A DNA stretch of 63,408 nt from Patescibacteria group bacterium UBA3530 (GCA_002376945.1 DFOX01000002.1:31468-94875), one strand, 5' to 3'. Counted from the stretch's first letter, positions 40,659 to 47,835 are shown. Translations and numbers: made by a program. Notes: generated by a model not told the origin, from the letters alone.

Positions 40659-40916
40659 ATGCACAAAATAATATTTTTAACCATGCCGGGATGTCATTCT
40701 TGTGAAGAAGCGAAGGGGATATTCAGCGAAATTATTCCTGAATTTGAATCGATAGTCAGTGTTGAGGAGGTCGATATGATGAGCGAACAAGGACAAGCGT
40801 TAGTGCAAAAACACAGCGTGTTCGCATCACCAGGAATCATTATTGACGATGAGTTGTTCTCTACCGGAGGAGTTGATAAGAACGCGCTAGTGGAGAGGTT
40901 ACGAGAACTTGAATAA
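40659..40916 (+). CDS. small thioredoxin/glutaredoxin-like protein (CHSC active site)
   Basis: IIFLTMPGCHSCEEAK...ASPGIIIDDELFSTGG; 85 aa, with Thioredoxin_3-like architecture. Confidence 0.7.
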   Translation: MHKIIFLTMPGCHSCEEAKGIFSEIIPEFESIVSVEEVDMMSEQGQALVQKHSVFASPGIIIDDELFSTGGVDKNALVERLRELE

Positions 40917-43812: not shown

Positions 43813-45279
43813 ATGTTTGCCAAGTACAAAGATGCCATACGCCGAGTAACGGGCGATTACCTCTACACAATCATTGCGGTGAGTTTCGCACTAAACTTAC
43901 TTGCACTCGATTATATATTGTTGAGTCAGGCCACTACATTTCGCATAATGGCTGCACAAAACACCCTGTTTTACAACGCGTCCACGATACTTTTAAGCAT
44001 TATCACAGCGATACTCTTTGGTGTATCAAGTGCAATGGTGGTGTATATACTCAAGCGACGAAAAAGTGTCAAGGAATCGGCACCGAGTACATTTTTCGGA
44101 ACGGTCTTTGCTGCGGTTGCAAGCGGTTGTCCGGTATGTGGAGCGTGGCTACTCCCGCTTCTGGGAATTGCAGGGTCTTTGGCGGCCTTTCCGTTGCAAG
44201 GGCTTGAAATTCGGCTATTGGCAATTGGCCTTTTGATTTTCTCAATTGCACAATCAACCAATATAATATTGGGGTTGTGTAAGGATTCGAAGAAGCATGT
44301 GCAGACTTCGGTGATCGTGATTGTGGCTTTCATTGTCGCACTCTTGTTACTCCCAAATCTTCCTTCTCAGTTTAAAGTGAGGTTTCAGTTGTCAGGTGTC
44401 AGTGTACCCACCGTTACTGCAGGTGCTGACGTGAATGCCATCTATGATCAGGTCAATCCACGAGAAGGGTACGCCATATCTGCGCGCTATGGAAATATCG
44501 GGTATCAACTCGTACAAGCGGGCGTGATTGATTTTGATCGGTTCAGCTTGTTGTACGAGCGATCGGGTACTCCACTGACAAAGGCGCAACTCAAAATCTT
44601 TAGTGAAGAGGGATCAGATGAGAATATTCTCATCAATAGAGAGAATTCATATTTCCTCCTCAACCTTTTCTGGGCATTTGGTCTCGGGAACGATAACCCC
44701 ATATTGACTGAAGGGCAGATTACACAGTATGGAAATGCAAGCATTGGAGATTTTGCCTCCACTGGCGGTTGGACTATTGCTACAAAACCACTTGAAGCGT
44801 ACTACTCAAAATTACCCATGGCGCCACTTAACGATGAACAACAGGCGAGACTCTTGGCGGTTGCTGAAAACACGTATAGACCGTGCTGTGGAAATTCAAC
44901 CGCTTTTCCTGATTGTAATCACGGCATGGCACTACTTGGTGTTTTGGAGTTGATGGCGTACAACAACGCTACGGAAGAAGAAATGTTCGAAGCAGCAAAG
45001 TACTTTAGTGCGTTTTGGTTCCCACAACAAGCAGTGGATGTGGCAACTTTGTTTATGGTAACTGAGGGAAAGGCCTTTAAAGACATTGACGGAAGCATGT
45101 TCTTAAGCGAACAATTTTTCTCAGGACGTGGTTGGAGCCAGGTGCGCGGATGGCTTGAGAGTAATGTGCAAGGAGGTGTCGAATCACAAACACCAAACGG
45201 CGGCGGTTGCGGCGTGGAAAGCGGTGCTCCCGTGCAAAAGCAAGTCATCCCGCAAGGCGGCGGCGGTTGCGGAGTCTAA
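43813..45279 (+). CDS. membrane protein with intramembrane GCPVCG motif and large Cys-motif ectodomain (unknown family)
   Basis: The N-terminal ~190 aa are polytopic (AAVASGCPVCGAWLLPLLGIAG). The C-terminal ~300 aa are soluble, with YRPCCGNSTAFPDCNHGMA. It ends in a duplicated GGGCGV...GGGGCGV. Confidence 0.7.
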   Translation: MFAKYKDAIRRVTGDYLYTIIAVSFALNLLALDYILLSQATTFRIMAAQNTLFYNASTILLSIITAILFGVSSAMVVYILKRRKSVKESAPSTFFGTVFAAVASGCPVCGAWLLPLLGIAGSLAAFPLQGLEIRLLAIGLLIFSIAQSTNIILGLCKDSKKHVQTSVIVIVAFIVALLLLPNLPSQFKVRFQLSGVSVPTVTAGADVNAIYDQVNPREGYAISARYGNIGYQLVQAGVIDFDRFSLLYERSGTPLTKAQLKIFSEEGSDENILINRENSYFLLNLFWAFGLGNDNPILTEGQITQYGNASIGDFASTGGWTIATKPLEAYYSKLPMAPLNDEQQARLLAVAENTYRPCCGNSTAFPDCNHGMALLGVLELMAYNNATEEEMFEAAKYFSAFWFPQQAVDVATLFMVTEGKAFKDIDGSMFLSEQFFSGRGWSQVRGWLESNVQGGVESQTPNGGGCGVESGAPVQKQVIPQGGGGCGV

Positions 45280-45293
45280 CATCAACGTAACAA

Positions 45294-45323
45294 AAGCACT
45301 CCTGGGGTTTGTGGGTGCTTTTT
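45294..45323 (+). terminator. rho-independent terminator ending the csoR-copB operon
   Basis: aagcactc...gggtgctt stem (8 bp including G-U) followed by ttt. Confidence 0.65.
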
Positions 45324-45420
45324 AAATGTAAATTACGCTTTATATTTATCCCCTGTGCAAGATACTGCAAATTCAGCAGGTATGTCATAATTGAAGGAAG
45401 AGGTTACTAGTACATACACT

Positions 45421-46134
45421 ATGAATATGAATGTATCAAAAGGAAATTATGCAATACCAGCTTCTATTGTGATTGCGGGAGCTTTTATCGCACTTGCCAT
45501 ATTCTTCACTGCAGGCAAGAATGCAGTGCAACCGGCACCATCGCAGCCACTGGCAGTCGATACCACTGACCGGATAAATCCGGTGACCGCAGAGGATCAC
45601 ATTCGAGGAAGTATAGACGCGCAGGTTTTTGTGGTGGAGTATTCAGATTTCGAGTGCCCGTTTTGTAAGCGATTTCACCCCACGATGAAGCAAGTGATGG
45701 AAGCGTACGATGCAGACGAAGTTGCGTGGGTATATCGACAATTCCCGCTCGACTCACTTCACCCAGTTAAAGCAAGACGGGAGGCAATCACTTCAGAATG
45801 TGTTGCTGAGCTGGGAGGAAATGATGCTTTTTGGCAATTTACCGACAGGTTCTTTGAGGTCACTCCGTCTAATAATCAAACTGATTTGGATGTAGTGTTA
45901 CCTGAGATTATTGCCGAGATCGGACTTTCGCAAGAAGCGGTGGACGAGTGTGTTGCAAGTGGTAGGTATGACCAACATGTGCAGGATGATGTCGATAATG
46001 CATTTGCAACCGGTGGACAGGGAACGCCCTGGAGCGTGATAATCGGGAAAAATGGAGAAACCTTCCCCCTCTCCGGTGCTCAACCATATACTTCTGTGAC
46101 ACAACTTATCGATATTGCACTCAAGGATAAGTAG
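45421..46134 (+). CDS. DsbA/BdbD-family thiol:disulfide oxidoreductase (CPFC), membrane-anchored
   Basis: N-terminal anchor, then VVEYSDFECPFCKRFHP, and a GTPW cis-Pro-loop-like segment (GGQGTPWSVI). The start is taken at MNMNVSK (45421); ORF-track start 45391 is TTG. Confidence 0.85.
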   Translation: MNMNVSKGNYAIPASIVIAGAFIALAIFFTAGKNAVQPAPSQPLAVDTTDRINPVTAEDHIRGSIDAQVFVVEYSDFECPFCKRFHPTMKQVMEAYDADEVAWVYRQFPLDSLHPVKARREAITSECVAELGGNDAFWQFTDRFFEVTPSNNQTDLDVVLPEIIAEIGLSQEAVDECVASGRYDQHVQDDVDNAFATGGQGTPWSVIIGKNGETFPLSGAQPYTSVTQLIDIALKDK

Positions 46135-46136
46135 GT

Positions 46137-46673
46137 ATGGGCGCACTGCAGAAAGTTTTCGTTCAATGGAAGTATGTGGCTCTTTCTGCCATGGTAGCGA
46201 TTGCGATATTTGCATTTTCTGTATGGCTTCCCAATTGGAAGTTGATTTACACCGTCTTCACTGCACCCTCTGTGAGCTTCTTTGAAGCAATCAGTGTAGT
46301 GCTCGGGTTGTTTTTATCGATTGGCACCAACTTCACCATCGTATCTGCTTCCTATACCATAGTGATTGCCATTTTGTTTGGTGTGAATGTATCACTCCTG
46401 ACCTACTACATTACGCGAAAGAGGGGTGCGTTTGGTACAGGGGGCGTGCTCGGTGCGGGAGGTTTGGTAAGTGGTGTCTTCGGGGTTGGTTGTGCATCGT
46501 GTGGAACATTTATACTCACGTCACTCCTTACCTTTGTCGGTGTCGGAGGACTACTCACCATGCTGCCATTGAAAGGGGAGGAGTTTGGTATATTGGGAGT
46601 TGCACTTATTGGCTACGCGACCTATTGGACAATGAGGAAAATAGAGGAACCGTTATTAGTTTGTGATGTATAA
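46137..46673 (+). CDS. membrane protein with intramembrane GCASCG motif, paralogue of the N-terminal domain of 43813..45279
   Basis: ILFGVNVSLLTYYITRKRG...GVGCASCGTFILTSLLTFVGVGGLLTMLPLKGEE aligns by eye with ILFGVSSAMVVYILKRRKS...ASGCPVCGAWLLPLLGIAGSLAAFPLQGLE. Confidence 0.65.
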   Translation: MGALQKVFVQWKYVALSAMVAIAIFAFSVWLPNWKLIYTVFTAPSVSFFEAISVVLGLFLSIGTNFTIVSASYTIVIAILFGVNVSLLTYYITRKRGAFGTGGVLGAGGLVSGVFGVGCASCGTFILTSLLTFVGVGGLLTMLPLKGEEFGILGVALIGYATYWTMRKIEEPLLVCDV

Positions 46674-47067
46674 AAGTATGAGTAATAGCGTACAACTTAC
46701 CATAGCATCAGTGATACTCGCAGGAGGACTCATTGTTTCAGCCATCGTGCTTACATCAGGAGGACAGAGCACTAAAAAATTCAATGTGGTTATGCAGAAT
46801 AATAGGTACAACCCGTCTGAAATTGTTGTGTCAGTTGGTGATCGGGTTATTATCAATTTTGAAAATAGAGACCCGGTCAGTCACGGTATTGCAATACCGC
46901 AATTCAATGCTACAGTTCCAAATGGACATGTTCCCGCAGGAGGTTCGGCGCGCATGGAGTTTATCGCAGATAGAGCTATCGATACTGATGCGGCAGTGTG
47001 TGGAGGGCCAAACCCGACCGACAAGACTGATGAACATGGAGAAGAGTTTATAGTACGAGTTAGATAA
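46663..47067 (+). CDS. membrane-anchored cupredoxin-like domain protein
   Basis: TM anchor, then NRYNPSEIVVSVGDRVIINFENRDPVSHGIAIPQF...GGSARMEF, a cupredoxin-like beta-sandwich pattern. The alternative start 46678 avoids the 11-nt overlap. Confidence 0.55.
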   Translation: MMYKSMSNSVQLTIASVILAGGLIVSAIVLTSGGQSTKKFNVVMQNNRYNPSEIVVSVGDRVIINFENRDPVSHGIAIPQFNATVPNGHVPAGGSARMEFIADRAIDTDAAVCGGPNPTDKTDEHGEEFIVRVR

Positions 47068-47073
47068 TCAAGT

Positions 47074-47835
47074 ATGAAAAAGAGTATCATCATTGCTTTA
47101 ATTATTATAGGAGGAATTGCATTCTATGCATTCTCTGCCGGTAGCGCAGATCAGGACGATTTTGTGGTTACTGCGGAAACTGATGGTAGTGCAGTTCTCG
47201 TGGAGAGTGTAACTCTAGATGCCCCAGGTTTTGTGGTCATACGAGAAGTAATCAATGATCGACCGGGACAGATAGTGGAGGTGAGCGACCTGCTTCCGGC
47301 GGGACGTAATACCAATGTTACCATTGGTTTAGGAGCCCCGTCCGGGATTGAGGGCATTGACATCGGTGGTGGTTTTCCACTCTTTACCAGTCTCGCTGCT
47401 GTGGTGTATTACGATGATGGAGACGGAGGATTCAATTCTCTGACGGATACGGTGGCGTATGTTAACGGTAATGTACTCGCTGAAGATTTGGGTACCGGTG
47501 AACGTGCACAAGAATCGGCGGTCGTTCCAAATGTACAAGCTGAATCTCTTGAGGGAGAAGTTGCGGTAACGGTTCGGTATACTGATCAGGGTTTCTTGCC
47601 AAAGAGAGTGGAGATACAAGTGGGAGATACGGTGAAGTTTATCAACGAAAGTAGTAGGCCTATGTGGGTTGCGTCTGATGTGCATCCTGCACACACCATT
47701 CTTCCTACCTTTGATCAATTTACCACCTCAGCATACGGGGAGAGTTACTTCTACACATTTCAAGAGGCCGGCGAGTGGCGATACCATGATCACGTAAACG
47801 CAAACGAACTTGGTACGGTCATGGTGAGTGAATAA
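47074..47835 (+). CDS. exported protein with C-terminal Cys-less cupredoxin-like domain
   Basis: Signal anchor. The C-terminus FLPKRVEIQVGDTVKFINESSRPMWVASDVHPAH...GEWRYHDHVNANELGTVMV has His-rich potential ligands but no Cys. Confidence 0.6.
   Translation: MKKSIIIALIIIGGIAFYAFSAGSADQDDFVVTAETDGSAVLVESVTLDAPGFVVIREVINDRPGQIVEVSDLLPAGRNTNVTIGLGAPSGIEGIDIGGGFPLFTSLAAVVYYDDGDGGFNSLTDTVAYVNGNVLAEDLGTGERAQESAVVPNVQAESLEGEVAVTVRYTDQGFLPKRVEIQVGDTVKFINESSRPMWVASDVHPAHTILPTFDQFTTSAYGESYFYTFQEAGEWRYHDHVNANELGTVMVSE

Follow-up and report, generated by a model that had tools for sequence, protein, structure and literature searches.

To our knowledge, only DsbB, VKOR, and the DsbD/CcdA/ScsB group are recognized as membrane partners of thioredoxin-fold proteins outside the cytoplasm. 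DsbB (PF02600) and bacterial VKOR (PF07884) are small membrane proteins of about four helices with a CxxC, next to a DsbA-type gene. CcdA and the DsbD beta domain, which act with DsbC, ResA, or ScsC, are polytopic proteins that combine intrahelical cysteines with an outer thioredoxin-fold CxxC partner, and CcdA/DsbD and ScsB-ScsC are frequent in copper-stress gene sets. MerC/MerT join a membrane-helix cysteine pair and a cytoplasmic cysteine to an outer thiol partner in a metal-resistance context. The present study concerns a 63,408-nucleotide stretch of DNA from Patescibacteria group bacterium UBA3530 (GCA_002376945.1, DFOX01000002.1:31468-94875; hereafter the window), in which two paralogous membrane proteins of 488 and 178 amino acids (the large and the small protein) flank the gene of a DsbA-like protein. 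By gene context and predicted topology, they share the features just listed with these systems, and they differ from each of them. Both contain a module of about 170 amino acids that, by sequence comparison, appears to be a previously undescribed, unannotated, and widespread family. Our preferred reading, which we hold tentatively, is that this module would act as a membrane-crossing cysteine relay, leading from a cytoplasmic reductant to DsbA in the case of the small protein and to a fused outer domain in the case of the large one. The features on which the argument turns are as follows.

43813-45279, plus strand: large paralogue, an open reading frame of 488 amino acids with five predicted membrane helices, N-terminus inside and C-terminus outside, then an outer domain of about 300 amino acids
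44125-44142, plus strand: GCPVCG, residues 105-110, the intramembrane CxxC (C106/C109) in helix 3 of the large protein
44278-44280, plus strand: C156, the module's third cysteine, in the K/R-rich loop that joins helices 4 and 5; predicted to be cytoplasmic
44875-44931, plus strand: YRPCCGNSTAFPDCNHGMA, residues 355-373, a motif in the outer domain of the large protein with vicinal Cys-Cys and then Cys-x-His
45199-45216, plus strand: first GGGCGV (C466), residues 463-468, in the disordered C-terminal tail of the large protein
45256-45276, plus strand: second copy, GGGGCGV (C486), in the large protein, with GGGCGV again at residues 483-488
45391-46134, plus strand: membrane-anchored DsbA-like protein; Thioredoxin_4 (PF13462), Pfam E 3e-19; DSBA (PF01323), E 2e-14
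46137-46673, plus strand: small paralogue, an open reading frame of 178 amino acids with four helices and a short re-entrant segment, both termini inside
46488-46505, plus strand: GCASCG, residues 118-123, the intramembrane CxxC (C119/C122) of the small protein
46662-46664, plus strand: C176, third cysteine of the module, in the K/R-rich C-terminal tail of the small protein, predicted cytoplasmic

A preliminary description of this DNA had aligned the N-terminal part of the large protein with the whole small protein by eye, and the likeness is real: the two share 29% identity over 112 amino acids (BLASTP, E 5e-9), and their family alignments match in hhalign with 99.5% probability (E 2.9e-23) over 162 columns, which is the whole membrane module. 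The homologous stretch consists of the first approximately 170 residues of the large protein and all of the small one. The motifs quoted in that description, namely GCPVCG and GCASCG, the basic loops KRRKS (residues 81-85 of the large protein) and TRKRG (residues 93-97 of the small protein), and those of the outer domain and tail, are all found in the translated reading frames, and the coordinates bear out that the small gene starts 2 nucleotides past the dsbA stop. The description had considered the two proteins as a candidate replacement for DsbB/VKOR or a metal-handling unit, which presupposes that their cysteines are conserved. Among 120 homologues examined per family, the CxxC is indeed 99 to 100% conserved: C106 and C109 of the large protein in 99%, and C119 and C122 of the small protein in 100% of the homologues and throughout the alignment, although the small-family motif usually reads CAAC in other members. 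The description had overlooked a third conserved cysteine of the module, C156 in the large family (96%) and C176 in the small family (98 to 100%); the two align with each other, 4 to 6 residues past the fourth helix.

The outer domain of the large family also has conserved residues. C358, C359, and C368 are conserved in 100% of the 120 homologues, and R356, P357, C358, C359, N361, T363, F365, D367, C368, N369, H370, G371, M372, and A373 are invariant in 55 large-family sequences. Both copies of the GGGCGV tail motif are present as previously reported; C466 of the first is conserved in 95 to 100% of the family, but the second occurs in only 17% of the 120 homologues. Thus, the duplication itself is not a family feature.

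The two families are large. A word search found 251 homologues of the small protein, and an exhaustive search with its profile recovered 310 clusters (at 50% identity) with E<1e-30, a number that rises to 1,740 at E<=1e-3. The large family numbers more than 3665 homologues, and no Pfam domain is seen in any of them. One weak match (L012) is devoid of any cysteines and was left uncounted. Neither protein has a Pfam or NCBIfam match or belongs to a known transporter or redox family, and a Pfam scan of 111 alignment members (56 of the small and 55 of the large family) returned no consistent family. PDB sequence searches with both family profiles were empty. Foldseek searches of the PDB with AlphaFold2 models of both proteins gave nothing at E<0.001, the top matches being unrelated helical bundles. 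No described family was found in the literature.

Direct comparisons with the systems named above were likewise negative. The DsbB model matched none of the 56 small-family and 55 large-family members at E<=1, although the same model picks up a DsbB encoded beside a related module (locus L053) with E 1.7e-14, and hhalign of the small family against Patescibacteria DsbB gave 0.2% probability. The comparison profiles for DsbB, VKOR, and CcdA were built from Patescibacteria loci. For VKOR, there was no Pfam match, and hhalign against a profile of 11 Patescibacteria sequences gave 2.8%. For CcdA/DsbD_TM (PF02683, PF13386), there was again no Pfam match, and hhalign gave 1.5% over just 18 columns around 'GVGC'. 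MerC and MerT (PF03203, PF02411) matched none of the 111 members. Against P0391, a MerC-like protein of a related locus (L102:136-732; PF03203 at E 9e-6), hhalign gave 1% probability, though the CxxC and the next helix align.

The strongest result concerns the neighbor of the small gene. In a synteny sample of 80 small-family loci from species-representative genomes, nearly all of them Patescibacteria metagenome-assembled genomes, a DsbA gene lies immediately upstream on the same strand in 78; the first independent loci that were inspected showed this arrangement too. Among 60 pairs in which spacing and motifs were parsed, the median gap is 5 nucleotides, and the DsbA partner carries CPFC in 59 and a GTPW loop in 57. 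The DsbA-like protein of the window (45391-46134) belongs to the DsbA-like thioredoxin fold by its Pfam matches, its CPFC (residues 89-92), and its Thr-cisPro loop GTPW (residues 211-214); it has a second cysteine pair, C137/C187, and is the single DsbA-like gene in the host genome by both tblastn and Pfam model. The pairing is kept where metal genes are not nearby (for example L017) and in a distant GC-rich organism (L117). Since the small gene nearly always follows directly upon one type of DsbA, its product is probably the dedicated membrane partner of that enzyme, and the functional tie proposed in the preliminary description is thereby strengthened. A third form of the module stands alone in L006, just 3′ of the gene for a membrane-anchored protein whose two thioredoxin-like domains bear CTDC and CTEC. 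As a general rule, then, there is one module per extracytoplasmic cysteine-bearing partner, which is either the product of a neighboring gene or a fused domain.

The nearest solved relatives of this DsbA include CdDsbA/TsdA of C. diphtheriae, BdbD, and ScsC. CdDsbA/TsdA (PDB 4PWO, 7UNN; E about 1e-9) likewise adopts the DsbA fold as a membrane-anchored monomer; its active site is CPFC, and it has a Thr-cisPro loop. In vitro, it has isomerase/reductase activity and reduces CueP, a copper-resistance protein to which it is tied (PMC4546943), and its authors judged it 'not primarily an oxidizer' (PMC9974433). However, the match is distant, and no small-family gene is known beside tsdA, no search having been made for one.

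A membrane protein of about 140 amino acids is encoded directly upstream of the first DsbA at L015:6782-7192, at L013:6749-7180, and at no fewer than 33 further loci, which makes at least 35 in all. It has a conserved C...HS...CQM..EHI..WQ and a C-terminal DPLKEAFSxGILNPKxF, matches no Pfam entry, and is not encoded in the window. Possibly it is a substrate of the DsbA-module pair or a third member of the system. Two further proteins of related loci have Gly-rich tails with a terminal Cys, reminiscent of the GGCGV tail in the large protein: a second DsbA (CEAC) with a His-rich C-terminal domain, ending in ...VGGLGTEC (L015:8559-9764), and a small anchored protein with HHDHCANCNEH at its start and ...MVGGC at its end (L006:87-401).

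The arrangement of the module in the membrane can be predicted from charge and from natural fusions. Across the 120 + 120 sequences, lysine plus arginine average 2.6 to 4.1 per segment in the N-terminus, in the loop before the CxxC helix, and in the segment with the third cysteine (2.9 in the large-family loop and 2.6 in the small-family C-terminal segment). The small-family loop past the CxxC stretch is acidic, with an average of 0.17, and the CxxC is the mid-point of an uncharged stretch of about 40 amino acids. One member, P0361 (L117:4001-5146), carries a Cys-free class I S-adenosylmethionine (SAM)-methyltransferase domain fused directly past the third cysteine, a fusion found on 12 contigs, and in some members of the large family the N-terminus is extended by a long K-rich stretch. 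These charge statistics and fusions predict a topology with the N-terminus inside, the CxxC within helix 3, and the third cysteine in the cytoplasm, so that the CxxC does not face the cytoplasm. The extra fifth helix of the large protein is predicted to put its 300-amino-acid domain outside; this domain also occurs alone, as a 319-amino-acid protein with a single N-terminal anchor, in the copper island of L102. A module fused to a DsbA or thioredoxin domain was not found among the best 150 representatives, the sole real fusion being that to the SAM-methyltransferase. Another apparent fusion (P0321) looks like a chimera or a frameshift and was rejected. In the AlphaFold2 models, the mean predicted local distance difference test score (pLDDT) is 80 for the small and 82 for the large protein, with the outer domain mostly above 90 and the tail (roughly residues 461-488) at about 30 to 35. 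Within the helices of the small protein, N33, T64, N65, Y73, T74, and E149 are invariant polar residues.

These observations suggest to us an outward relay, a reading that we place ahead of the others while giving it somewhat less than an even chance. The module would consist of a CxxC inside helix 3, an acidic outer loop, and a single cysteine on a short cytoplasmic segment past helix 4. The small protein would serve the CPFC-type DsbA encoded immediately upstream, and the large protein would serve its own outer domain with its CC...C-x-H motif and mobile GGCGV tail. A cytoplasmic protein of the thioredoxin/glutaredoxin (Trx/Grx) type would reduce the cytoplasmic cysteine, which would in turn reduce the membrane CxxC; the CxxC would then pass its electrons to DsbA or, in the large protein, to the outer domain. 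Exofacial thiols, including copper-binding ones, would in this way stay reduced or correctly paired, especially in copper stress. That electrons rather than metal are exchanged, and that they flow outward, is what we infer.

The logic of such a relay resembles that of CcdA/DsbD-DsbC or ScsB-ScsC, executed by an unrelated protein. As in those systems, a cytoplasmic Trx/Grx-type gene accompanies the module in some operons, including that of the window and that of L117. The latter comprises, in this order, ArsR, a cytoplasmic DUF302-glutaredoxin (CPYC), a DsbA (CPFC), and the module, with no CcdA, and it also encodes a YgaP-like membrane peptide. CcdA also has no match in five of the six genomes in which a DsbB-like gene lies beside the pair. 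Unlike CcdA, which has six helices in an inverted repeat with one cysteine in each of two helices, the module has four helices and a re-entrant segment, with the CxxC in one helix and a single cytoplasmic cysteine; moreover, it often coexists with true CcdA and has no sequence or profile similarity to it. As for possible electron donors, the host genome encodes a TrxB-like flavoprotein (CATCDG), a TlpA-like WCPFC protein, and two small Trx_3-like proteins (G000 C9, C10; window 40659-40916), and no canonical thioredoxin above the Pfam cut-off. The 85-amino-acid Trx_3/Grx-like proteins may be the cytoplasmic disulfide reductants of this organism. The outward relay also draws support from the copper genes close to about half of the small-family loci and around most of the large-family loci examined, from the loci described below in which the pair stands beside a DsbB-like oxidase, and, as a precedent, from CdDsbA/TsdA.

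Several observations weigh against this outward relay. The disulfide relays known to us use cysteine pairs, but the module offers a CxxC and one cysteine, so the cytoplasmic step would need a dimer or a mixed disulfide. The confidence of the AlphaFold2 models is low exactly around the CxxC in both proteins, and thus its depth in the membrane is uncertain. We compared 50 genomes that bear the DsbA-module pair with a phylum sample of 201 Patescibacteria genomes: CcdA (above the Pfam cut-off) is present in 28 of the 50 as against 71 of the 201. Since CcdA is commoner with the pair, the module is not a general substitute for it, and many islands, that of the window included, already hold a CcdA and Trx_3 pair. 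Finally, a crude gene call on the host genome gave 38 even against 9 odd cysteine counts among proteins with a single N-terminal anchor (exported), and 113 even against 136 odd among cytoplasmic proteins. Such a strong even-cysteine bias is the signature of a disulfide-forming organism; together with a sole DsbA and no DsbB or VKOR, it suggests that the DsbA here may act as an oxidant.

This last point leads to the opposite possibility, that the module is a DsbA oxidase. The membrane CxxC would reoxidize the CPFC DsbA and pass the electrons to an acceptor in the membrane or to a bound one, which would make the module a functional analogue of DsbB/VKOR and a third, unrelated class of membrane enzymes that generate disulfides. 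We regard this as doubtful, although it has real attractions. The gene is nearly always paired with DsbA, the predicted CxxC does not point toward the cytoplasm, the invariant intrahelical polar residues could make a cofactor site, and about 10 of the 50 pair-bearing genomes have neither VKOR nor CcdA. The preliminary description had noted that there is no recognizable DsbB or VKOR homologue in the island, and this extends to the whole 538-kb host genome (17 contigs, 99.5% complete), which nevertheless encodes one DsbA and shows a bias toward even cysteine counts among its exported proteins. In addition, the CPFC protein TsdA is able to support oxidative folding in vivo (PMC9974433).

The architecture and the distribution of the module argue otherwise. 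In contrast to DsbB and VKOR, the module has no second extracytoplasmic cysteine pair: just three cysteines are conserved, and the third lies in the K/R-rich segment predicted to be cytoplasmic. There is neither sequence nor fold likeness to DsbB or VKOR, and no electron acceptor is evident. Furthermore, VKOR is not depleted where the pair occurs, being present in 18 (above the cut-off) to 24 of the 50 pair-bearing genomes versus 59 to 62 of the 201 of the phylum sample. The module and VKOR are thus not complementary, and the pair is independent of VKOR. Among the first eight other pair-bearing genomes, five have VKOR and one has DsbB. Just downstream of the module, six loci encode a DsbB-like protein together with a second DsbA. 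Five of these are closely related (L040, L050, L052, L053, L054) and have the order DsbA1 (CPFC), module, DsbB, DsbA2 (CEAC); in L053, the only locus of the six for which the DsbB assignment was confirmed with Pfam, the end of the DsbB gene overlaps the start of DsbA2. In the sixth, L093, a more distant DsbB-like gene lies downstream of DsbA2. That two translationally coupled pairs are direct neighbors suggests that their tasks differ. Taken together, the lack of complementarity with VKOR, the DsbB-like gene beside six modules, and the missing outer cysteine pair speak against the earlier proposal of a general DsbB/VKOR replacement.

Nor, in this phylum, does the need of a DsbA for a reoxidant, to which the preliminary description had appealed, point to a neighboring gene. 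Among the 201 genomes, a DsbA-like protein is found in 159, VKOR in about 62, CcdA in 71 to 97, and the small family proper in about 5. Thus, about half of the phylum has a DsbA without a recognizable membrane oxidase, and most DsbA-bearing members have neither VKOR nor the module. Since an orphan DsbA is normal in the phylum, a lone DsbA by itself does not call for a neighboring reoxidant, and the module is not the general answer of the phylum to orphan DsbAs. A more specific version, in which the small family would be a third DsbA-recycling class without a canonical quinone site and the only source of disulfides in this host, with the large paralogue performing the same chemistry on a fused copper-binding domain, is in our view improbable.

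Unlikely, too, is that the module, like MerT/MerC, relays a thiophilic metal (Cu(I), or else a different soft metal or metalloid) between three places: an outer thiol site, the membrane CxxC, and the cytoplasmic cysteine. The outer site would be the CPFC of DsbA or, in the large protein, the CC...C-x-H domain together with the mobile GGCGV tail. This alternative concerns the large protein above all. The genomic context lends this idea some weight. The large-family loci examined are mostly copper islands or lie beside DUF411/CopG, with CsoR, P-type ATPases, cupredoxins, DUF1573, YHS, and DsbD_2-cupredoxin fusions as neighbors, although there is one stand-alone case without surrounding metal genes. 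Three cysteines suit trigonal Cu(I) coordination, and the vicinal CC, the C-x-H, and the flexible Cys tail may be seen to resemble metal hand-off arms. The combination of a CxxC in a helix with a cytoplasmic cysteine presumably mirrors the layout of MerC/MerT, the CxxC and next helix align (not significantly) with the MerC-like protein of the related island, and an ArsR-regulated operon encodes one member as a fusion with a methyltransferase. However, none of the 111 members matches MerC, MerT, or any other transporter model, and the MerC-like alignment has only the 1% probability given above. Unlike in MerC/MerT, the CxxC is in helix 3 rather than helix 1, the cytoplasmic cysteine is single rather than paired, and the partner is a DsbA-fold protein rather than MerP; in three subfamilies, the partner has a thioredoxin fold and a CxxC, a combination typical of redox chemistry. 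The pair also occurs away from metal genes, as in L017. Of the 80 loci, about half have a P-type ATPase, CsoR-type, or cupredoxin gene no more than 3 kb away, and about half have no metal gene nearby. Besides, copper import from an island that is induced for export would be physiologically implausible.

It is very improbable that the small protein is a mere substrate of DsbA, which would form its CxxC disulfide, or a structural anchor that tethers DsbA in a complex: synteny alone cannot tell partner from substrate, and TmcD, a DsbA-type enzyme, acts on the membrane-embedded TmcA encoded beside it (PMC13712780), but the whole four-helix module is very highly conserved, its cytoplasmic cysteine and intrahelical polar residues included, and more than 3600 proteins carry it joined to another outer domain rich in cysteine, which is easier to reconcile with a general service module than with the substrate of one enzyme. 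The TMcin system to which the DsbA-like TmcD belongs was judged to be unrelated to the module.

Whether it is electrons, as we prefer, or metal that the module passes, envelope thiol and copper biology would gain a new building block from it, in an unannotated family that counts about 1,700 clusters (50% identity) with the module and more than 3,600 proteins of the large form. The module would also help to explain how exported cysteines are handled in ultra-small bacteria; the majority of these organisms encode a DsbA and lack both DsbB and VKOR.

In the window, the two paralogues and dsbA are part of a co-directional run that encodes, in order, a CsoR-like repressor, a rhodanese-DUF1573 fusion, a DUF1573 protein, a CcdA-like protein, a small Trx/Grx-like protein, a P-type ATPase, a small Met-rich protein, the 488-amino-acid protein, DsbA, the 178-amino-acid protein, two cupredoxin-like proteins, and a DUF3105-like protein. 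The cupredoxin-like genes are as follows.

46663-47067, plus strand: first of two cupredoxin-like genes
47074-47835, plus strand: second of the two; the Pfam matches of the two genes are Cupredoxin_1 and DUF7282

Homologues of these downstream cupredoxins occur in about one quarter of the 80 related small-gene loci in the neighbor census. The gap between the large gene and dsbA is 111 nucleotides and holds, just past the stop of the large gene, a hairpin (AAAAGCACUCC...GGGUGCUUUUU, 45292-45323; -14.3 kcal/mol, z -2.6) followed by a U-run. This hairpin may terminate transcription fully or in part, in which case dsbA, together with the small gene and the cupredoxin genes, is possibly not simply co-transcribed from the CsoR promoter. 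A consensus scan of the 111-nucleotide gap for a promoter 5′ of dsbA gave none.

Related copper islands contain additional membrane proteins rich in cysteine. The MerC-like P0391 lies at the edge of one of them, the island that also encodes the outer domain alone, and has a Cys-rich, zinc-ribbon-like cytoplasmic tail. In two others (L104:4158-4973 and the region 3068-3553 of L019), polytopic membrane proteins, neither with a Pfam match, carry intrahelical vicinal Cys-Cys (APCCITF and SSCCAPV; MVMCCAHH), and from these motifs they look like further unclassified cysteine conduits.

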